Assembly: GCA_965217865.1 (NCBI GenBank)
Contig: CBDCJO010000002.1
Span: 3,296,001 to 3,360,000, forward strand
DNA length: 64,000 nucleotides
Source of the DNA: Candidatus Latescibacterota bacterium
GTDB taxonomy: Bacteria > Latescibacterota > UBA2968 > SICM01
Direction: 5' to 3'
Below the pieces are notes generated by a model. That model saw only the letters and a program-made list of their open reading frames with translations, was not told the DNA's origin and made no database searches. Shown here piece after piece: positions 39,104 to 51,934 of the stretch (positions within the stretch are counted from its first letter, which is position 1; each line of letters begins with the position of its first letter). A program made the position numbers and the translations under genes.

Positions 39104-39659
39104 GGACAACTCCGTCGACAAGGGAGTTATTCGGCCCTGTGTACAATTAACCCGCTATGCCAAAGAATACTCACGCCAGAACAACCGCCGTCGTCTTCGT
39201 CGAGCTGGCTCAGGGGGATCCCCAGGAACTCGGAGGCTTTTTTTTGGATCTCCAGCATCGCCTCTTTACAGCATCCTCAGCTTATCCCGCTCGTACATGA
39301 AAAATGTACGGGACGTATTATGGGGGGGCAATGGTTAACAAGGAAGGAGCGTCAAGCCTAGAACCAAAAGTTGTACGATATTTAACACTTTGGACGGAAA
39401 CCGGCACCAAATTGGTATACGACGACAAAGCGCGATGGACCTCTGTCCGGGGGGGACAAAATTGGGCTTGGAGATCAATGCCATGGGGTTAACACCCCTT
39501 AATTTTTCCTTCTTGTCCCTTTTTAAACCTTGTAAGTTATCTTTTGTCTGAGATCGCCCGAAAAAACGGGGGCAAGGTCGAAGCAAGATCCTGGTTGCCT
39601 GTAGGGTTGAGAAGGGATACATATTTTGGGATATCCCTGACCTCACAGGAGGAGTAAAG

Positions 39660-39995
39660 ATGGAGCAACTGTCCTCAAACAGTGACCCGGTCAAGAAGCG
39701 CAGGAGCTTGTCCCCGGAACAGAAGTATGAGATTTTCCTTGAAGCCAGCCGGGGAGATGTTCCCATTGCACAGGTGCTGCGGAAATGGGGCATTCATTCC
39801 TCGGATCTAAAGCGTATTCGTGAGTCGGTCAAGTCCGGGGCCCTCAAGGAGTTCAAGGGTCGCCGGAGCCGCAAGCCGATGGTATCGGCTGAGGAGGTGG
39901 AGCAGCTGCGCAAAGAGCGGGCACGCCTGGAGCAAACGATCATTGAGCAATCTGTGGAACTTTCCCTGCTAAAAAAAAGTGTGAATGGGATCTGA
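39660..39995 (+). CDS. IS3-family OrfA (HTH)
   Basis: 'RRSLSPEQKYEI...IAQVLRKWGI' plus leucine zipper. Confidence 0.85.
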   Translation: MEQLSSNSDPVKKRRSLSPEQKYEIFLEASRGDVPIAQVLRKWGIHSSDLKRIRESVKSGALKEFKGRRSRKPMVSAEEVEQLRKERARLEQTIIEQSVELSLLKKSVNGI

Positions 39996-40018
39996 CAGGC
40001 CCGATCAAGGGCCACCGG

Positions 40019-41050
40019 GTGCAAGCTGAGGTCAAACGCGAGATCCTCTTAATGGTCCATCGGGCCAAGGAGAAAGGGGTGAAACTCACCCGTTCTTGCG
40101 AGATCCTACAGCTTCCCCTCCAGCGGTATTGTGCCTGGAGCCGGCGAGATCGAGAAGAGAAGCTGGATGGGGTGTCGGACCCGCTTTTGGATGGGAAGCC
40201 CGGGCCCGCCCCTGATAAGGCCCCACACGGATTGCTGAGGGAGGAGAAAGAGCAAATCCCGGCCCTCTTAAGGGATGAGACCTATGCCGATCTGCCTCCC
40301 CATCAGCTGGCGGTGGTAGCCTCAGAGAAGGGGGTAGTGCAGGCCTCGGCCTCCAGCTTCTACCGACAGGCCAGGAAAGAACGTCTGGCACGCAGGAAAC
40401 AGGTGAGGACGCCGGTCAAGCAGAGCAAGCCCCAGGTCAAACCTGAAGGTCCTAATCAGGTCTGGAGCTGGGACCTGACCTACATCCCATTTTTCGGTTT
40501 GTTCCTGTATTTTACCGCCATTCTCGACGTGTATTCCAGGAAGATCGTAGGATGGAAGCTCTCCTTCAACGCGACCGTGGAGCAGGTCAAACAGGCCTGG
40601 GATCAAGCCCTTGCCAACGAAGGACTGCTGGACCTGGACACTGGGCCCATAAGCTTGACAGCCCTCTCAGATCACGGATCTCAGATGAAGGCCAAATCGA
40701 TGGCCCAATTCTTCAAGGACCTGGGCATCTCGCAGCTGTTTGCCCGATATCAAACACCCACGGACAACGCCTGGATCGAAGCCTTTTTCCGGACATTCAA
40801 ATACGACTGGCTGCGCTTCCAGGACATCTTCACATTCCATCAACTGGAAGGCCTGATTGATTCCTTCATTCACAGCTACAACGCCGAACGCTATCACGGG
40901 GCAATACAGTATGTCACGCCTCTTCAGAGGCATAAAGGCCAGCATCAAAAGATTCTTCACCACCGACAAGGTCGAAAGGAGGAGGCTCGGCAGCGCCGCA
41001 TAGAAATCAATCGGCAAAGAACATCCCAGACCATCCACAAGGCTGCCTGA
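40019..41050 (+). CDS. IS3-family OrfB (DDE integrase core)
   Basis: 'PNQVWSWDLTY', 'SDHGSQM', 'DNAWIEAFFRTFK'. Confidence 0.9.
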   Translation: MQAEVKREILLMVHRAKEKGVKLTRSCEILQLPLQRYCAWSRRDREEKLDGVSDPLLDGKPGPAPDKAPHGLLREEKEQIPALLRDETYADLPPHQLAVVASEKGVVQASASSFYRQARKERLARRKQVRTPVKQSKPQVKPEGPNQVWSWDLTYIPFFGLFLYFTAILDVYSRKIVGWKLSFNATVEQVKQAWDQALANEGLLDLDTGPISLTALSDHGSQMKAKSMAQFFKDLGISQLFARYQTPTDNAWIEAFFRTFKYDWLRFQDIFTFHQLEGLIDSFIHSYNAERYHGAIQYVTPLQRHKGQHQKILHHRQGRKEEARQRRIEINRQRTSQTIHKAA

Positions 41051-41134
41051 ATCTTGCTTGGACCTTTATCTACTTTTCTCTTGTTATCTCAGAATAGATA
41101 CAAAGTCACCAAAAAGTTCCATATCTATCTCGCA

Positions 41135-41735
41135 CGGTCGGCGGCCGTATGATCCGAAAAGGCCGCTTTTGGCCATGGACGAACACCCCGTGCAGTTGAT
41201 CGGAGAGACTCGCATCCCGGTCCCGGAAAAACCGGGACATCCCCGACGTTACGACTATGAGTATGAGCGTAACGGCACAGCCGCGAATTTCTTGTTCCTC
41301 GAGCCCCTGACCGGACGTCGGAAGGTCCACGTCCGGGAACGCAGGACCGCCGTAGACTGGGCTTACGAGATCCAGGAGCTGCTTGAGGTGGACTACCCGG
41401 ATGCGGAAGTCGTGGTCCTGGTCTGCGACAACCTCAATACTCACACCATCGCATCTCTCTACGAGGCCTTCCCACCCGAAAAGGCCCGTTCTCTAGCCAA
41501 ACGCCTCGAATTGCACTACACCCCCAAGCACGGTAGCTGGCTCAATGTCGCCGAGATCGAACTGAGCGTCCTTGCCAGACAATGCCTGGACAGCCGCATG
41601 CCTGACCTGCAGACCCTCACCAACCAGGTGGAGGCCTGGAAATGTGATCGAAACGAGAAACACAGAACCGTTGATTGGCAGTTCACGACCACCGACGCCC
41701 GAATCAAACTGAAGAAGCTCTATCCCAAGTTTTAG
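41135..41735 (+). pseudogene. IS630-family transposase, C-terminal part
   Basis: 'AMDE', 'YDYEYERNGT', 'LVCDNLNTH', 'YTPKHGSWLNVAEIE'. Confidence 0.88.
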
Positions 41736-41857
41736 GTGATCGATCTATGAGAATACGGCGCAAACGATACCGGTGCGGTCAGGTGGTATGATCCAATGAT
41801 GTGACTTGGACAGTCCGAGCGTTATTGCGGCGAGTTCTCACCAGAGAGGAGTAGAAC

Positions 41858-42928: not shown

Positions 42929-43009
42929 AAAAAGCATCGGCCGAACAGATGCGTGAATTTGCGCGGGAGTGTGACTCCCGCCAACAGTTCATCAATCAGT
43001 CCTCTATAC

Positions 43010-43155
43010 GGCGACGCTGGGAGAACCAGCCCGCCGGCGGATGGTCGGTCGAAGACCTCGACGCGACAGAGATCCGGCGCACGGTCTCGGAGGCGATCCG
43101 GCGAGGCCGACTGGAAGACCCGGGGACTCGGGAACCGGCTGAATTGTTGCGCGGC
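43010..43155 (+). pseudogene. Fragment of an AlbA_2/RecG-C-type ATP-binding protein
   Basis: 'RWENQPAGGWSVEDLD.TEIRRTVSEAIRRGRLEDPGTREPAELLRG'. Confidence 0.5.
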
Positions 43156-43164
43156 GGCGGTGCT

Positions 43165-43260
43165 GTTCGATGGTGTTGGTCGCCACGAAGTTGAAGATCA
43201 GGCAGTCGTGCCGCTGGCCGTAGCGGTGGATGCGGCCCATCCGCTGCTCGAGCCGGTTCG
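43165..43260 (-). pseudogene. SNF2 helicase motif VI fragment
   Basis: 'RLEQRMGRIHRYGQRHDCLIFNFVATNT'. Confidence 0.75.
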
Positions 43261-44391
43261 GGAGTCAGGAGAAAGGATCCTCATGTTTTCAAGGATGAAT
43301 TATCGGGTATTTTCTCGGTCTCTTTCTTGATCTCCAATTAATTCGTGAATAACGCCTCGGAAGACCGTTGAAATCTGTAAGATTCCCATAATCCACCAGA
43401 TTATCCGAAACTGACGAGTTACAGGTACCGTGAGAATCAAAGGTCCGCTCTTTCATTACTCTTGATTTCCCTCCCGGTGCGCTTTGTTGATCCATTCCAC
43501 AGACGAGCATCGCGAGACATCGAGGTAAACATTCGGCATCCATAGCGTCGCGTATGAGGTCAGTCGAGTTCGCCACGCAGCCACCGGGCCAGCGCCTTCT
43601 TCGGAGAAGAGATCTCCCTCACAGACGTATAGTAGTAGTCTTCCCACCCCCATTGTGTTGTGCAATGAAAGGCCCGATCTTTCGGACCATCCAGCTTTTG
43701 GACAGCATCTTTGGCCAGTGCAACCTGGATTTCAGTCTGCCAGAGGGCATTGTGTAAAAACAGTCACTTACTTGTCCAAAAAAGGCCCATTCTGATTTAT
43801 CTTGGACAGCAGTGTAAAAATTTATGTAATTTTTCGTAAATCTCCCTTATCGGAAATCCCGACCCTTCGACCATCGTGACGGGAGCACAGAAATACGGGC
43901 CTGTCGAGCCGAGGGAGCTACGGCACCACGGCCGACAAGAGGCTAGAGAACACTCGCCATCCGGTTCTGACGCGCAAGCTGCGGTAGGCCAACGGACCTG
44001 CTTCTTTTTCGAAACGCCTTGGTGGTGCGTATGCTGTTGGCGGATACCGTGATCTGGATTGCCCAGGGGCTTCTGGCGACCACACAAGCCATATCCTCTG
44101 CGTCCATGACCTCCTGCCAAGATCGCTCAACGAAGGCCGGGGCGCCTCGGCGCACCGTACCACACATAGCCATCCGGTATCTGCACGTCGAGCATCTCTT
44201 CGAGGCACAACGCCTGAGCACAGAGCTGTAGATCGGCTGCCGACCCATGCCGGACGCCCGATTTGTATTCAACAGGCAGCGTTGAGGGTTGAGTTTGCTT
44301 GCGCTTGCTGAATCTTAAGACGCCTTGCCTTGCAAGGGAAGATTCAGCCCCTCAACGCTGTTATTTTCCTCCTTCACTCAATATAGAAATC

Positions 44392-45333
44392 GTTAGACGC
44401 AACATTGTTTTTGTCATAACCAATTAGTATGGGGGAGCAAAAGAGAAGATTGGAAGCCAGACGCCCAATATCCATTCCAACTTCGTTTGATTACGATGTG
44501 CCGATCGAAACACAGATTCCACTGATCGCGCGGGCCGGGTTTACGCATGTTTCTTTAGGAGGAAGAAAGGTCCACACAGCTTATCTTTCAAAGCCTGCCA
44601 GAACTGCACTCAAGCAACTTTTGATTGAACACCGACTCAGTATGGATACTATCCACGGGCCGAATGCTGACCAACCCAATTGCATTGATGTTTTATTGGG
44701 CATTTCGGAGGCGGCAGTGGAATTATCTGGTGCCGGTCGTGGTTATACACGGAGGGCCATTTAGTTTTGGGGAAGACGAATTACCGTCCCGTTTTGAGGA
44801 ACTTCTTATTACGTGTGAAGCACTTGAGCCAATTGCGCGTGAAAAAGGCATCACGTTTGCACTTGAGAACGTGCTTCCAGGTCCGGCCACGGAACTCGTT
44901 CGGCGCGCGGTCCTCGAACTTAATCCAGAGCACTTCGGGTTTTGCTATGATTCCGCCCACGATCAGATTGGAGGTCCGAGGCCATTCGATCTTCTCTCGC
45001 AACTCAGGAACAGGGTTGTTGCGGTACACCTATCGGACCGCATTCGGAAACATGTAGATCATCTCATTCCTGGCAGCGGGTTCATCGATTGGATATCCCT
45101 TTCAGAGGAGTTGCGGCGCACGCCTTTTCCTGGGCCGTTGCTTTTGGAGGTGTCAGTTACCCACTCTGATGTGAAGGATACGAAAGATTTCCTGAGCCTG
45201 GCCTACCAAAAGGGGTGCTGGATTTACGATATGATATTTGACTCGCTCCAAACTAACTAACACCAGAATAAGGACACCATGATCGGCTCCGCTTGGCTTT
45301 GGAGTTTTACAAAAACAATGCAGACGCCTAACA
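44392..45333 (+). mobile_element. Probable integron gene cassette
   Basis: GTTAGAC (GTTRRRY) 37 bp before the ATG; GCCTAAC (RYYYAAC) shortly after the stop; lower GC; attC-like remainder at 46964-47030. Confidence 0.65.
44429..45260 (+). pseudogene. Sugar phosphate isomerase/epimerase (AP endonuclease 2 TIM barrel), one frameshift at ~44730
   Basis: 'ARAGFTHV...TIHGP' then 'VVIHG...FALENV...GFCYDSAH...VHLSD...HLIPGSG.IDW...LLLEV'. Confidence 0.8.
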
Positions 45334-45379
45334 CATATTAAAGGCCCCGGGTCAAGAAAAAAAGACTCCTCCATCACGA

Positions 45380-45833
45380 TTTTCACCGTTTTTTTGCGAC
45401 CCTAACGTTCGGGGCGTGCAATGAGCCGATCCGAAGAGGTTTGGCGATGTTCGGATCTTTGTCAGTCGTCGGTCTGACTTGATTTTCACAAACCGGGCTA
45501 GATGTGAGCCATCTGCACCAAACACGTATCGGGAATCAAGCGCCTCTCACGGTATACTGTGGAGCGCCCTGGGAGAGGCATTGTCCTCTCCCTCCAGAAA
45601 ATAATCGGTACCCCTTGAGTCCCAATCAAGAAGGATGGCTGTTCTCCCCTTTTATGAGGGGGAACGCCAGTTAGGTTCGGGTTCATCGCGGGGGCAGACG
45701 GACTGACTGTCTCAGATCCGCTCATCTATGTTCTAAATAAGGGGTGAAGGCGGCTTCCCAATCAAGCCGATGAGCTGGGCTATTGTCCGGACGTTGCCCT
45801 GCCAGTTAGGCGCCGGGTTAACCGCCCCACCCA
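45380..45833 (-). ncRNA. Putative bridge/seekRNA region with repeated guide-loop modules
   Basis: ~500-bp ORF-poor, hairpin-rich end; two modules 'CCTAAC-TGG-hairpin-CTTG-ATTGG'; boundaries approximate. Confidence 0.7.
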
Positions 45834-46877
45834 TTATGCTACAAACCGTTTCTCGTCGAATGCCTGGCCGTTTTTGAGCATTTGGTAGGCGGCCACGCCG
45901 AATTTGTGAGCGATGACGCTCTTGGCTTTTCCCGGACCTTGTTTGCTTTTGAGCTTCTCGTAGTATCTATTGATCGGTTCTGACCATCGCTGGGCGACGA
46001 GGATGATTTCTGAGAAGGCCCACTTTAGGTGTGGGTTGCCGATTTTGTTATTCCCGTCCTTTGTCTTCTTTCCAGCGGACTCTCTCTCGACTTTGATCAG
46101 CCGGCTGTAGGAGGAGAAGGCTGAAGCGGATTTGAACCGTTCAATCGTGTGGATTTCATACAGGATGGTCATGGCCAACATCTCCCCAAGTCCGGGAACC
46201 GTCATCAGGATAGACAGGACATTGCGATCGTGATGTTTGGCCTGTGCCAAGACTTGCTTCTCGACTTTGTAGATCATTTTGTCCAGGGAGTCAACCAGGT
46301 CCAGATCGCAGTCCACAGACATACTCAGATCTGGGTCGGCCAGACGTTCGCACAGCTTTCTCCTGTTGCTCTTCTTTTTGACCTGGTCGCTGAGAGGATC
46401 CAGGATAGCTTGCTGAGAGAAGGTGTTCTGGATGTGGGTGTAACACTCAGCCCGTAAGGCCACAAACCGGTGTCTTCGCCGGAGCAGGTCCCGGGTTGCC
46501 CGCATCTCTTGCGGATAGGCATAGGCCATCGGGAACAGGTTGCAGCGCATCAGCTCAGCCAGCATTCTGGAATCGAGACGGTCGTTCTTTTTCTTGCCCC
46601 CATGGATCGCCTTCATATACAGGGCGTGTCCCAGGTAGAATGGAATCCCGGCCTTGTGACACCCGTCAGCCAGCCAGTACCAGTTGAAGGTTGACTCCAC
46701 CCCGACGGCGATGCTACCGAGGTGAGTTTCCAGCACCTGCAGCAGGAGCTTGAAGTCGTTTTTCAGGTTGCGCTGGAACACAATCTCTCCCATCTTGTCC
46801 ATGATGCAGACAAACATCGTTCTGGCGTGGAGATCGATGCCACAGAAATAGTTCGAGTCGATCCTTGCGTATTGCAT
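45834..46877 (-). CDS. IS110-family DEDD transposase/recombinase
   Basis: 'CGIDLH', 'GVEST', 'KKNDRLDS', 'TVPGLG', 'ESAGK' (catalytic Ser), 'IGNPHLKWAF'. Confidence 0.95.
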   Translation of the reverse strand: MQYARIDSNYFCGIDLHARTMFVCIMDKMGEIVFQRNLKNDFKLLLQVLETHLGSIAVGVESTFNWYWLADGCHKAGIPFYLGHALYMKAIHGGKKKNDRLDSRMLAELMRCNLFPMAYAYPQEMRATRDLLRRRHRFVALRAECYTHIQNTFSQQAILDPLSDQVKKKSNRRKLCERLADPDLSMSVDCDLDLVDSLDKMIYKVEKQVLAQAKHHDRNVLSILMTVPGLGEMLAMTILYEIHTIERFKSASAFSSYSRLIKVERESAGKKTKDGNNKIGNPHLKWAFSEIILVAQRWSEPINRYYEKLKSKQGPGKAKSVIAHKFGVAAYQMLKNGQAFDEKRFVA

Positions 46878-48601
46878 AAGGCCCTCCTGTGGGAGAAAGG
46901 TGATTGAGATATCCGGATCTCAATTATAACCTCTCCTGACAACGAGGGCCTTTATATTAATATCAAAGTGCCCACGGCTGCGCCTGTCATCCGGTTTGCA
47001 TAGAACAAAAGCGCAAACCGGCTGCCAGTGCTCGACCTAAACCGCCCTCATCGGCAACCGTGGATCCCCGTGCAGGTATCGGGACCGAGTTCGATTTGGT
47101 ATCACTTGGCGTAATAACGAGTGGATCGTGCTGGGACTTATCCGAGATCCGGGGTGGATTGATCCAGACCTCGGAAGGCAGGTCGGTTGGCTGTGACACC
47201 TCTTATGGAGACGGCCGGAAACTTCACTGAATTCCAACTTTCAGTGTCTCAAAATTGTTGACATGTTCCGATCACCAAAGCGCCCTTGGGTGGCACGCGG
47301 CCTACGTTCCGTCGTGCGCTACGAGGAGCATGTGCGCAAGCTGGATAACCGGTCCGGTTTCATCGACGAGACCTCAAAATTATCGCCACAAGGGGCACGG
47401 CGAACAGGCGGGATGCAAGCCATGACCATCCCAACGATATTCGAGACAAACACGGCGGGGAAGGCGGCAAACTCTAACGAAACAGCCACCATCATCGGGA
47501 TCGTCTCCGGTACCGATACCCTGAAATACAAGGCTGACCAGCAAAACCCTGCGTTCACCGGGCCGGGGGGGGCAGTGGGTGGCGTGGTGGTACGGAGCCC
47601 GGACGGGAAACCTCCGACGCGGAACTGCTCAAATTCGGGGGACCTGGTCCGGCTCCAGTGAATACATACCGGGGGACGTTCCCAAACGTCGAACCAGGCT
47701 GTTAAATAAGGCAGACGGGAAAAACAGAGAATCAGAGAATCCGGGAGGAGATATCTCTGCTCAGCGGGCGCAACCCCACGGTTGTGCTCGAACACCGGGG
47801 GGAACGCTTCGAAACAGAGAATCGGCAGAGAGGGGAAGGAGGTGGCCCAAGTGTTTGTGAATACGACAGAAACGACAAGACTCCGAAGGGTTGCCCCACG
47901 GGGTCTTGCGTTAACGGACGACCGCCGAAGTTGGCGGATTGGAATCTGGCTCCCCATATGATCCTTTCCCCGGAACCATTCTCTGTTCGTCAGTCGTAAC
48001 ATGCTGTATTGAAAGGAGCTATCGTAATTACGCCCGCGCCGCAGACGCGGAAGACAGCGTCAAGACGACTTCCGCCCTTCAGGTCAAAACAGCCACTTCT
48101 CCGACATGGGATCAGGATATCCGGGTCGTCGTTACCCACGCTGTTCACCTTGGTGCTGACGGCGCGCCTTTCGTAGGGGCCAACACAGGCTTCACGCATC
48201 AACTCGAGAAGCCGTGGTGAGGTCGTTGTCCACGTTCTGGACCGCCTCACGCTGTCGGAAGCTGTGGCGGAGGAACCGTTTAACCTGAAGAAATTCTACA
48301 TAGTGCGGCGCAAATCTCAAATCCCCTCTTCCCACACCCGCCAAATCGCCACTCTTATCTTCCCCTCCATCCGCTCGTAGCTTCTGATCGCTCGGATCTG
48401 AAGCCTCCCTGATTGACAGCTTCCGGCCAAACGGCTATATTACTCGATTGTCTGACTGCCCCTAATCGTCTTGGCTCCCAGTCTCGCGCACTCCCGGAAT
48501 GCAGTGAGGAGCAAGACCACGCTCGTCGAAACCGTGGCGGGCGCGTGGGGAGCAGGAAGCATATCGGGTTCTCAAATATGAACAGGGAACAGAAGCAGAG
48601 T

Positions 48602-49392
48602 ATGAAGCTGGAAGATCTCCAGGCCAATGCTGCGGTGCATGGCATCCTATCCGACTCTCTCGTCACGGTGGTCAGCGTGCAGTGGTTCGGCTCCGAAGCG
48701 CTTGAGTTGACGTACAAGACACCTGCCGGAAAGGTTGCCAATGAGCTTCTGTACCGTCACGACGAAGCCCGGCTCGAGATCGTCGAAGTCGGCCGGCCAT
48801 GGAGCTTTGACGGAGACGGTGCGTTGTTCCGCCTGGTCTCCGAGGCGCAGCGGATACGCCTCGCGCATCTCTTCGATCCGGTGCTCGCCGTGCACACCTC
48901 GGTCGTCGAGCCGTTGCCCCATCAGATCACCGCGGTCTACGAATCCATGCTGTCCCGTCAACCCCTTCGCTTTCTTCTCGCCGATGACCCGGGCGCCGGC
49001 AAGACGATCATGGCGGGGTTGCTCATCAAGGAGTTGATCGCTCGCGGGGATCTGCAGCGGTGTCTGGTCGTCTGTCCCGGCAGTCTCGCAGAGCAATGGC
49101 AGGATGAGCTTTACCGCCGGTTCCAGCTGCCCTTCGACATCCTGACAAACGACAATCTCGAAGCCGCGCGCACAGGGAACTGGTTCCTGGAATCCAATCT
49201 CGTTATTGCCCGGCTGGATAAGCTCTCTCGCAACGAAGACGTTCAGCAGAAGCTGCAGGTTCCGGATTGCCGCTGGGACCTCGTCGTGTGCGACGAGGCG
49301 CATAAGATGTCGGCGACGTTATTCGGTGGTGAAGTCAAGTACACGAAGCGCTACCGGCTGGGGCAACTGCTGTCGAGTCTCACCCGCCATTT
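48602..49392 (+). pseudogene. SNF2-family helicase N-terminal part, truncated by IS3 copy 2
   Basis: 'PLPHQITAVY', 'LLADDPGAGKT', 'QWQDEL', 'CDEAHK'. Confidence 0.9.
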
Positions 49393-50959
49393 TGTATCTA
49401 TTCTGAGATAACAAGAGAAAAGCAGATAAAGGTCCAAGCAAGATTCAGGCAGCCTTGTGGATGGTCTGGGATGTTCTTTGCCGATTGATTTCTATGCGGC
49501 GCTGCCGAGCCTCCTCCTTTCGACCTTGTCGGTGGTGAAGAATCTTTTGATGCTGGCCTTTATGCCTCTGAAGAGGCGTGACATACTGTATTGCCCCGTG
49601 ATAGCGTTCGGCGTTGTAGCTGTGAATGAAGGAATCAATCAGGCCTTCCAGTTGATGGAATGTGAAGATGTCCTGGAAGCGCAGCCAGTCGTATTTGAAT
49701 GTCCGGAAAAAGGCTTCGATCCAGGCGTTGTCCGTGGGTGTTTGATATCGGGCAAACAGCTGCGAGATGCCCAGGTCCTTGAAGAATTGGGCCATCGATT
49801 TGGCCTTCATCTGAGATCCGTGATCTGAGAGGGCTGTCAAGCTTATGGGCCCAGTGTCCAGGTCCAGCAGTCCTTCGTTGGCAAGGGCTTGATCCCAGGC
49901 CTGTTTGACCTGCTCCACGGTCGCGTTGAAGGAGAGCTTCCATCCTACGATCTTCCTGGAATACACGTCGAGAATGGCGGTAAAATACAGGAACAAACCG
50001 AAAAATGGGATGTAGGTCAGGTCCCAGCTCCAGACCTGATTAGGACCTTCAGGTTTGACCTGGGGCTTGCTCTGCTTGACCGGCGTCCTCACCTGTTTCC
50101 TGCGTGCCAGACGTTCTTTCCTGGCCTGTCGGTAGAAGCTGGAGGCCGAGGCCTGCACTACCCCCTTCTCTGAGGCTACCACCGCCAGCTGATGGGGAGG
50201 CAGATCGGCATAGGTCTCATCCCTTAAGAGGGCCGGGATTTGCTCTTTCTCCTCCCTCAGCAATCCGTGTGGGGCCTCATCAGGGGCGGGCCCGGGCTTC
50301 CCATCCAAAAGCGGGTCCGACACCCCATCCAGCTTCTCTTCTCGATCTCGCCGGCTCCAGGCACAATACCGCTGGAGGGGAAGCTGTAGGATCTCGCAAG
50401 AACGGGTGAGTTTCACCCCTTTCTCCTTGGCCCGATGGACCATTAAGAGGATCTCGCGTTTGACCTCAGCTTGCACCCGGTGGCCCTTGATCGGGCCTGT
50501 CAGATCCCATTCACACTTTTTTTTAGCAGGGAAAGTTCCACAGATTGCTCAATGATCGTTTGCTCCAGGCGTGCCCGCTCTTTGCGCAGCTGCTCCACCT
50601 CCTCAGCCGATACCATCGGCTTGCGGCTCCGGCGACCCTTGAACTCCTTGAGGGCCCCGGACTTGACCGACTCACGAATACGCTTTAGATCCGAGGAATG
50701 AATGCCCCATTTCCGCAGCACCTGTGCAATGGGAACATCTCCCCGGCTGGCTTCAAGGAAAATCTCATACTTCTGTTCCGGGGACAAGCTCCTGCGCTTC
50801 TTGACCGGGTCACTGTTTGAGGACAGTTGCTCCATCTTTACTCCTCCTGTGAGGTCAGGGATATCCCAAAATATGTATCCCTTCTCAACCCTACAGGCAA
50901 CCAGGATCTTGCTTCGACCTTGCCCCCGTTTTTTCGGGCGATCTCAGACAAAAGATACA
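49393..50959 (-). mobile_element. IS3-family element, copy 2 (orfA 50500-50835, orfB 49445-50476)
   Basis: Near-identical to copy 1; TG...CA ends; flanks TTT/TGC show no target duplication. Confidence 0.92.
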
Positions 50960-51152: not shown

Positions 51153-51605
51153 GGTCAAGTCTTAAGCGTCCTGCAAAATGCAAGCCTTCAACTGGAGGTC
51201 CAGTGAGGTTCACGCAACGGCTACCATTTCAGCCGGTGGTGCGATCTGTCGTTCCTCATAGAGCAGCTGGAGCTGGAGCAGTTCGGTGGACGTGATGTTG
51301 ATATTCTGCCACCTGGCAGCGGCACGGATGAGAACAGCATAGACGAGCTTCAGGCAACTCTTTTCGGAGAAGAATCGCGGCAATGTTTTGGTTCGGCGGC
51401 GTTCCTCGACAAAGCTGCGTTCGATCAGGTTGGTGGTGCGGGCGAACTTCCGGAGTCGCCAGGGAAGCTGGAGGTGTGCGAGGAGAGCTTCGAGGTCCTC
51501 CGTGAGACACTTGCACAGACCGGGGAACTCCTTGCTGAACTTCTCCAGAAACTCTCGCACCGCACTTTGGCCGGCCTGAAGATCCGGGGCGTCACGAATC
51601 ATCAC
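51153..51605 (-). mobile_element. IS256-family 3' remnant with terminal repeat
   Basis: 'RTTNLIERSFVEERRRTK'; GGTCAAGTCTTAAGCGTCCTGCAAAA end. Confidence 0.85.
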
Positions 51606-51647
51606 CAGATACGGCTTGCACGGAGAATCTTCTGGATCTGTATCACC

Positions 51648-51934
51648 GGCCGTATGATCCGAAAGGCCCGTTCTCTAGCCAAACGCCTCGAATTGCACTA
51701 CACGCCCAAGCACGGCAGCTGGCTCAATGTCGCCGAGATCGAACTGAGCGTCCTTGCCAGACAACGCCTGGACAGCCGCATTCCTGACCTGCAGACCCTC
51801 ACCAACCAGGTGGAGGCCTGGAAATGTGATCGAAACGAGAAACACAGAACCGTTGATTGGCAGTTCACGACCACCGACGCCCGCATCAAACTGAAGAAGC
51901 TCTATCCCAAGTTTTAGGTGTCATGGTGTAGTAG
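51648..51934 (+). pseudogene. IS630-family 3' remnant, internally deleted paralog of 41135-41735
   Basis: 'KARSLAKRLELHYTPKHGSWLN...LKKLYPKF'. Confidence 0.85.

Follow-up and report, generated by a model that had tools for sequence, protein, structure and literature searches.

An IS1111-type insertion sequence at attC-like sites with a predicted three-loop guide RNA

The window analysed here, a 64,000-nucleotide stretch of a Candidatus Latescibacterota genome, contains an IS1111-type insertion sequence whose downstream non-coding region holds two similar modules. In a preliminary description, both modules were read as candidate target-binding loops that may let the element cover variable attC sites. 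The locus raises the question of whether the second module is a second address, or whether it serves the site that the first module has chosen.

Ends, copies and empty site of the element

The element lies at 45334-46965 on the minus strand and measures 1,632 bp with the TG core counted once, the shared core dinucleotide being found at 45332-45333 and 46964-46965. Its ends are common to full and partial copies in the genome (seven at 99.9-100% identity, two full copies at 94.6%, five partial copies and two left-end fragments), and they are identical around the TG core in all copies compared. As had been proposed, removal of the element at the shared core rebuilds the site: in two of four DNA-type runs, a contig joins 45331 to 46964, skipping exactly 1,632 bases with two shared letters and without duplication (both runs come from one study, and the short side of the joint has 28 letters, below the 31-letter bridging mark). 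No target duplication was seen in any of the ten own copies with paired flanks, where the longest run common to both flanks is 8-11 nt. Long target duplications were likewise not seen in 46 loci, where at most 22 nt are shared.

Perfect sub-terminal inverted repeat arms of 9 bp are located 9 nt inside the core on the left (46946-46954, minus strand) and 5 nt inside it on the right (45339-45347, minus strand). Relatives follow the same rule, with core, nine bases and arm on the left and arm, five bases and core on the right. The arms are shorter than the 11-13 bp usual for IS1111 elements and fall inside the 7-17 bp range given in PMC11208160. Their offsets of 9 and 5 show the same four-base asymmetry as the IS1111 terminal extensions of 7 and 3 bp, the absolute lengths depending on how the repeat is delimited.

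The gene at 45834-46877 (minus strand) encodes a DEDD transposase/recombinase of 347 aa with matches to PF01548 (E-value of 4.7e-17), PF02371 (E-value of 4.9e-19) and NCBIfam NF033542 (188.7 bits, cut-off 140). Motif positions point to D15, E61, D99 and D102, as well as Ser267 in the C-terminal motif, as the probable catalytic residues. An N-terminal DEDD RuvC-like domain and a PF02371 domain with this putatively catalytic Ser place the protein in the IS110/IS1111 family. The earlier assignment to the IS1111 type is upheld by these profile matches, the sub-terminal repeats and the non-coding stretch of 500 nt downstream of the gene (88 nt lie upstream).

Reading the joined ends with sigma-70 promoter spacing, we found a predicted -35 box (45350-45355, minus strand) that would meet a -10-like hexamer, 17 nt away, only once the ends join in a circle. 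Activity of this predicted circle-junction promoter would be in keeping with the family (PMC11187229). Contigs of eight sequencing runs contained no circle junction. A promoter and terminator scan of the linear element gave two promoters where 1.3 were expected, and none upstream of the predicted RNA on the RNA's strand.

Several copies in the genome depart from the full form. A 486-bp mini element in an attC-like site (G000:C2:1604719) retains both ends and lacks the complete guide region along with most of the gene; a deletion joint resembling it occurs in run X16. The copy at G000:C2:370698 has an extra TG at its right end, while the copy at C2:2462622 breaks off within the module 2 right guide and continues into unrelated DNA, in which no recognisable intron was found after the interruption. 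In the window, identical inverted copies of another insertion sequence (39538-41104 and 49391-50957) lie on either side of the region, and next to each is a fragment of another transposase gene (41058-41738 and 51474-51920). A non-coding-looking repeat at 47640-48100 has about 40 copies in the genome and no Rfam match, and further repeats are found at 47080-47250 and from 48400.

The target is an attC-like site

The boxes of attC sites are known as RYYYAAC and GTTRRRY. On the transposase strand, the genome copies sit at TG followed by TTARRY. In the window, the gene-proximal box of the target, of RYYYAAC type and including the core dinucleotide (45325-45333, plus strand), matches the module 1 right guide. 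The gene upstream of it (44625-45260, plus strand), which encodes a xylose-isomerase-like TIM barrel (PF01261), has the position of a cassette. The rest of the target (46966-47030, plus strand) corresponds to one half of an attC-like palindrome. A search over 170 bases revealed no closing arm, which leaves a half site only. Among 14 copies with a left end, a matching TAAC arm is located 70-160 bases upstream in ten and absent in four, the window's included (closing pairs were forced in the fold for this two-arm test of the 14 occupied sites).

An initial attC scanner returned no excess over shuffled DNA, and a profile built from six rebuilt sites was used instead. Searching the genome with it identified 51 empty sites of the same family, 49 of which are distinct. 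On the TAACA side the nearest gene terminates in 29 cases versus 5, and beyond the other end it starts in 32 versus 3, counted over the 51 sites. Since the neighbouring genes run against the transposase strand, the RYYYAAC box used for insertion is the gene-proximal one, and the element is oriented against the cassette. The empty-site family resembles attC sites in being imperfect palindromes with RYYYAAC/GTTRRRY ends that follow genes and form arrays. In this genome, which is 96% complete, no integron integrase matched above the TIGR02249 cut-off of 265 bits, and we therefore term the sites attC-like. The best candidate (G000:C2:1655961-1659488) is a gene in two frames with 117.7 and 105.4 bits; it adjoins a short cassette-like gene, and about 50 attC-like sites lie in arrays across the genome. 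The attC-like target proposed in the preliminary description is thus borne out by the gene-proximal box and by 51 related empty sites, while the window's own site provides only half of the hairpin.

Anatomy of the predicted guide RNA

All parts of the predicted guide RNA are read on the minus strand. Module 1 (45742-45832) is a predicted target-binding loop according to its fold and flank matches. It contains a right guide (45805-45812) and a left guide with core (45763-45772), after which two bases (45761-45762) equal the first two nucleotides of the element's left end. A variable linker of 45 nt leads to a second unit, a predicted donor-binding multiloop (45512-45698) that was overlooked in the preliminary description. 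Its closing stem pairs a 5' arm at 45694-45698 with a 3' arm at 45512-45517, the latter being the likely 3' limit of a predicted guide RNA of about 320 nt. This stem is helix 3 of alignment A1, with six pairs, four changed on both sides and 92.5% of cells paired. Nested in the multiloop is module 2 (45611-45693), a branch shaped like a target loop whose stems covary. It comprises a right guide (45670-45678) and a left-guide-like stretch (45627-45636). In the window, neither the full loop shape nor the core of module 2 has been lost, and the 2-nt match to the left end is likewise present; its inner hairpin varies freely in length among relatives. The predicted right donor guide (45597-45606) is complementary to the element's left end at six of eight bases plus the core G, and the predicted left donor guide with core (45521-45530) is followed by two nucleotides identical to the first two of the right target flank.

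The module and guide coordinates and strings given earlier are all present in the sequence. Modules 1 and 2 have exact repeats of 10 and 11 nt in common at the same offset (135/136 nt); when the 500-nt region was shuffled 5,000 times with dinucleotides preserved, two such repeats occurred once, and one or more in 467 shuffles. Fold z-scores are modest for modules 1 and 2 alone (-1.6 and -1.7) and reach -2.9 for the whole region. Rfam gave no match within 43000-50000. Metatranscriptome contigs from four of ten RNA runs contain relatives with 90-99% identity at a depth of 1-6, covering the gene and the non-coding region equally, a pattern that cannot discriminate a transcript.

Searches at the family and phylum level yielded almost no close relatives. 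The relatives gathered comprise at least 80 genome loci, at least 80 metagenome loci, 43 loci from ten genomes and five plasmid regions. Among the matches listed, 60 of 182 gathered loci passed a check that the last five bases and the core recur inside the non-coding region. By sequence comparison, this recurrence is the predicted left donor guide, and because the match served to validate the ends, it is not independent evidence. The two bases after it equal the first two of the right flank at 54 of the 60 loci among the matches listed, and after dereplication, with one mis-called locus (L032) excluded, at 52 of 57 versus 15 when permuted. The right donor guide is found upstream of the left one in relatives, scoring 4.56 of 8 versus 4.02 permuted (p = 1e-4; 36 guide/end pairs, for which automatic picking is noisy).

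RNAalifold, applied to 20 chosen sequences, returned unprompted the stems of module 1, those of module 2 and one enclosing module 2 and both donor guides, with 22 of the 29 consensus pairs changed on both sides. A set of 27 pairs, most of them from this fold, was 86.7% paired, versus 36-45% when slid. The layout is therefore a target loop, followed by a donor multiloop that bears a second target-shaped branch. It recurs from 100% down to 33% protein identity among the matches listed, including in elements at non-attC targets. A guide RNA downstream of the transposase had been predicted, and both the covarying stems and the flank-tracking guides described below agree with it; module 2, with its own covarying stems and a layout kept in relatives, is a real homologous loop. 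Across 25 guide sets, a match of the two bases behind the left-guide core to the element's left end occurs in 20 first loops and four second loops.

Some relatives have unusual architectures. Two Chitinispirillaceae relatives with 46% identity (L003:1060-1520 and L002:1290-1890) possess three modules, namely two free target loops and the nested loop. Their free loops have different left guides, each followed by a 2-base match to the left end. On the partial flanks covered, these two are better two-address candidates than the window element and may be true two-address elements. A partial tandem repeat in L210 (G173:C9:240237-244223) duplicates module 2, the donor loop and the right end, the right end and core being joined into the element's own module 2 right guide; it resembles a reported half-match expansion. 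On a Vibrio plasmid, a second IS110-family gene is located about 400 bases upstream of a related element (L229:1-784).

Landing sites follow module 1

We scored 14 sites in the element's own genome, with a duplicate dropped, an interrupted right end excluded, an extra TG trimmed at one site and the variant set by one left-end base. The module 1 left guide scored higher than that of module 2 at 12 of 13 left flanks, with one tie, and the module 1 right guide at eight of 11 right flanks, with three ties and no losses. For the window's variant, the own sites also exceeded the 49 empty sites, both for the right guide of module 1 (3.43 versus 2.24 of 5, p = 0.0016) and for its left guide (2.62 versus 1.98 of 6, p = 0.03). 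The preference over background was not significant for the other variant (right p = 0.086, left p = 0.31; n = 4 and 5). The module 2 left guide scored 1.5 and 1.0 at own-genome sites versus a background of 1.73; its right guide was marginal (p = 0.07 and 0.05), with bases partly common with module 1. TGTTA sites within three mismatches of the module 1 prediction numbered two for the window's variant and zero for the other, and none in the genome came that close to the 17-mer predicted from module 2. An apparent preference of G at right-flank position 7 for module 1 was dropped, as 45 of 49 empty sites also have G there.

The genome contains two 95%-identical variants, A (the window's) and B (L089 and L090), in which both module 1 guides differ and the module 2 guides are common. 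Right-flank position 6 agrees with the guide predictions, with C at six of seven A sites and T at three of four B sites. The two variants are likely a case of natural reprogramming inside one genome.

Relatives at attC-type sites gave 67 parsed loci, from which two mis-called ones were dropped, and 43 distinct sites with two flanks in 19 guide sets, own copies included. Module 1 scored higher at 39 of the 43 sites and module 2 at three (L007, L015 and L028), with one tie; per guide set, module 1 was better in 17 of 19. Module 1 guides covaried with the flanks (permutation p = 0.013 right, 5e-5 left) and module 2 guides did not (p = 0.76 right, 0.32 left). As the relatives are not independent, these permutation p-values overstate the signal. 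From 33 aligned relatives at non-attC targets, five near-duplicates were dropped. Here module 1 was better at all 25 sites with both flanks, its left guide scoring 4.42 of 6 versus a null of 2.11 (26 elements) and its right guide 5.44 versus 3.71 (27 elements).

Sister elements in G174 have the module 2 right guide in common and differ in module 1, and the flanks of their copies with a visible right end follow module 1 in four of four and two of two cases. In G176, the first six bases of module 1 fit 12 of 13 right flanks, and module 2 at base 4 fits none of the 13. Both sets of counts are for occupied sites alone.

Module 1 thus behaves as the target loop it was taken to be, with flank matches and covariation in its own genome and in relatives; its two guides for both target strands, the top-strand complement first, and their covariation with flanks are those expected of a seekRNA or bridge RNA. 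Two classes of site, each matching one loop on both sides, were not found. We rejected the two-address model, as own-genome, G174, G176, attC-type and non-attC flanks go predominantly with module 1. The proposal that module 2 serves as a second address for variable attC sites is not supported: no own-genome flank is better explained by module 2, and module 1 prevails at 39 of 43 and 25 of 25 sites. Since it is the first loop alone that the landing sites follow, we take the second as a likely helper for reading that site again, not as a second address.

What module 2 follows

In non-attC relatives, the module 2 right guide tracks the same right flank as module 1, with 4.41 of 6 matches versus a null of 3.47 (p = 1e-4, and p = 8e-4 within target class; 27 elements). 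Position by position, the match is 70-96% at positions 1-5. The left stretch tracks nothing (1.08 versus a null of 1.28 in 26 elements), and all 28 first loops retain the 3' core motif, compared with two of 28 second loops. Sliding the module 2 3' strand of these relatives along the left flank, the right flank and the left end in any register gave no signal (p = 0.39-0.99). Module 2 was also rejected as a donor loop, as its guides mismatch the joined ends and separate donor guides are present. The covariation of guides with insertion flanks, suggested earlier as a check, hence appears for both guides of module 1; for module 2, it appears for the right guide in non-attC relatives only and fails for the left guide.

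On a quick tree of 61 proteins, with switches read by eye, changes in the module 2 right guide accompany changes of target on several separate branches (L150, L135, L066 versus L164/L076, L022/L120); in L051, L143 and L148 the target changed and this guide did not follow. In attC guide sets, the third base agrees between module 2 and module 1 in 28 of 29. Covariation of the module 2 right guide beyond the common first 2-3 bases is absent in the attC clade, including the window element (p = 0.76), so that a reading role for module 2 here rests on these first bases and on the non-attC relatives. Since the second module is present in relatives without attC targets, it is not an adaptation to attC variety.

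Copying between loops could give the same pattern as selection for function. In Acidobacteria-type elements (G176, L059, L157 and L167), the module 2 left guide is equal or nearly equal to that of module 1. In an attC-targeting subclade (L039, L059, L157 and L167), the left guides of the modules are the same or nearly so and the right guides differ; the equal left guides suggest copying between loops.

Possible roles of the second loop

Comparison of sequences has established the ends, the core, the target class, the covarying stems and the tracking of flanks by guides. The reading that we favour, and hold to be probable with a good measure of doubt, is a predicted guide RNA with three loops: the first fits the landing sites and the last the ends of the element itself, and the middle one likely reads the right side of the chosen site a second time instead of choosing a second site. 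By analogy with characterised relatives, the element ends would join into a circle and form the promoter, the predicted RNA would bind the transposase, module 1 would pair with both target strands around the TG core, and the donor loop would pair with the joined ends. Module 2 would share its multiloop with the left donor guide, the last two bases of which would read the right flank. The module 2 right guide and the left donor guide together would then spell the right junction, consisting of element end, core and right flank; module 2 therefore likely acts at this junction. It may act in excision or in right-end transfer, the latter needing its right guide and not its left. A full division of labour, in which site choice and the left junction would fall to module 1 and the right junction to a dedicated hybrid loop made up of module 2 and the donor loop, is a tentative proposal on which we would not yet rely. 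In CazIS110-1, the RNA parts required differ between the left and right junctions (bioRxiv 10.1101/2025.10.25.684509), and circle formation of ISEc11 needs target flanks (PMC11187229). For IS621, donor-only recognition is reported to suffice for excision (bioRxiv 10.64898/2026.08.31.748434), which makes a helper role for module 2 less needed.

Module 2 might instead be a structural or vestigial loop, an ancient copy of the target loop that persists for folding or as a scaffold for protein binding, with no need for pairing between guide and DNA. A decayed left side with the core in only two of 28 non-attC elements, the freely varying inner hairpin, the lack of covariation past the first 2-3 bases in the attC clade and a module 2 left unchanged after reprogramming of module 1 in G174 would all suit such a remnant. 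Against it stand the tracking of right-flank positions 1-5 by the module 2 right guide (70-96% of 27 non-attC elements, also within target classes), its switches with the target on several branches and a third base identical between the modules for 28 of 29 attC guide sets, and we regard this explanation as rather unlikely. Highly improbable is an independent second target loop that widens the attC range and is perhaps seldom used. The loop shape, core and 2-nt left-end match retained by module 2 in the window, together with its higher score at three of 43 attC-type sites, are what such a loop would show. It is nonetheless favoured by none of the 13 left and 11 right flanks in the genome, no TGTTA site there lies within three mismatches of its 17-mer, all 25 non-attC sites favour module 1, the left-end match occurs in four of 25 second versus 20 of 25 first loops, and the loop also exists in relatives with non-attC targets. 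Least probable of all, in our estimate, is that the transcript is cut into two RNAs working in separate complexes, namely module 1 at seekRNA size (about 90 nt) and, from module 2 and the donor loop, a bridge RNA complete in itself (about 190 nt). The 45-nt variable linker between the units would fit this, as would IS1111 seekRNAs of 82-96 nt that are cut from longer RNAs (PMC11187229) and a loop-only RNA of CazIS110-1 that cooperates with the full bridge RNA (10.1101/2025.10.25.684509); in what each loop reads, it overlaps with the three-loop reading.

Comparison with known systems

The element resembles the attC-targeting ISKpn4, ISPst6 and ISPa25 in its DEDD transposase of about 340 aa, its sub-terminal repeats and the non-coding region after the gene (PMC11187229). 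Like their seekRNAs, its predicted RNA has the top-strand complement before the bottom-strand match (PMC11187229). Insertion of the element likewise falls at the attC end nearest the gene, in the orientation opposite to the cassette. Their insertion point is about 5-7 bases further inside (PMC13604230 Table 1), whereas in our element the core TG immediately precedes TTARRY on the bottom strand. The long RNAs of those elements measure 148-172 nt (PMC11187229), compared with about 320 nt for the RNA predicted here, which has a second target-shaped loop. ISKpn4 and ISGsu4 belong to different protein clusters in PMC11208160 Supplementary Table 1; by this cluster listing, the lineage of the element would be distinct from that of ISKpn4. 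The names ISGsu4, ISGsu5, ISShfr7 and ISShwo5 in that table are ISfinder names of one cluster. A plasmid protein annotated as 'ISGsu4 family' has 35% identity over 97% of the length and the same three-loop layout downstream; its element occupies a non-attC site, unlike that in the window.

As in IS1111-group bridge RNAs (Durrant et al. 2024, PMC11208160), the predicted RNA lies at the right end and combines a target loop with donor guides in a multi-loop. In the text of that paper, in contrast to our element, the multi-loop is assigned donor-binding bases only and an extra target-matching branch is not named; the three IS1111 examples drawn there are from other protein clusters than ISGsu4. 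The 2-nt extensions that match partner DNA resemble handshake guides (PMC13626964). CazIS110-1 (10.1101/2025.10.25.684509) is similar in that two target loops may take part in one transposition and in that RNA needs differ between left and right junctions. In that IS110-group element, the additional loop is a shortened version of the bridge RNA itself, guides included, whereas our element encodes its extra loop separately, with a sequence of its own. Multiple predicted donor loops and tandem non-coding repeats are mentioned in the accessible part of 10.64898/2026.08.14.744561, and a second target loop is not. In the accessible parts of the IS110/IS1111 literature, including PMC11187229, PMC13604230, PMC13626964, PMC12288879, 10.1101/2025.05.14.653916, 10.64898/2026.10.21.760802 and 10.64898/2026.03.19.712850, we found no description of a third, target-matching loop; figures (PMC11208160 6d and Extended Data 10c) and bioRxiv supplements may show one.

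Implications

On the sequences compared, the multi-target claim for this element is not supported, and the point of interest is the conserved third loop. A count of similar-looking loops would overestimate how many targets an element has. The element also marks a second insertion point in attC-like sites, in a lineage that is distinct from ISKpn4 by cluster listing. Recent models conflict on how IS110/IS1111 elements exit from a site, and the bias between excision and insertion restricts what they can do as editing tools. A conserved additional loop for the right flank alone would offer a precise experimental handle on each junction, five bases in length. If the proposed division of labour is true, IS1111-type recombinases would have a built-in, separately programmable control of excision versus insertion.
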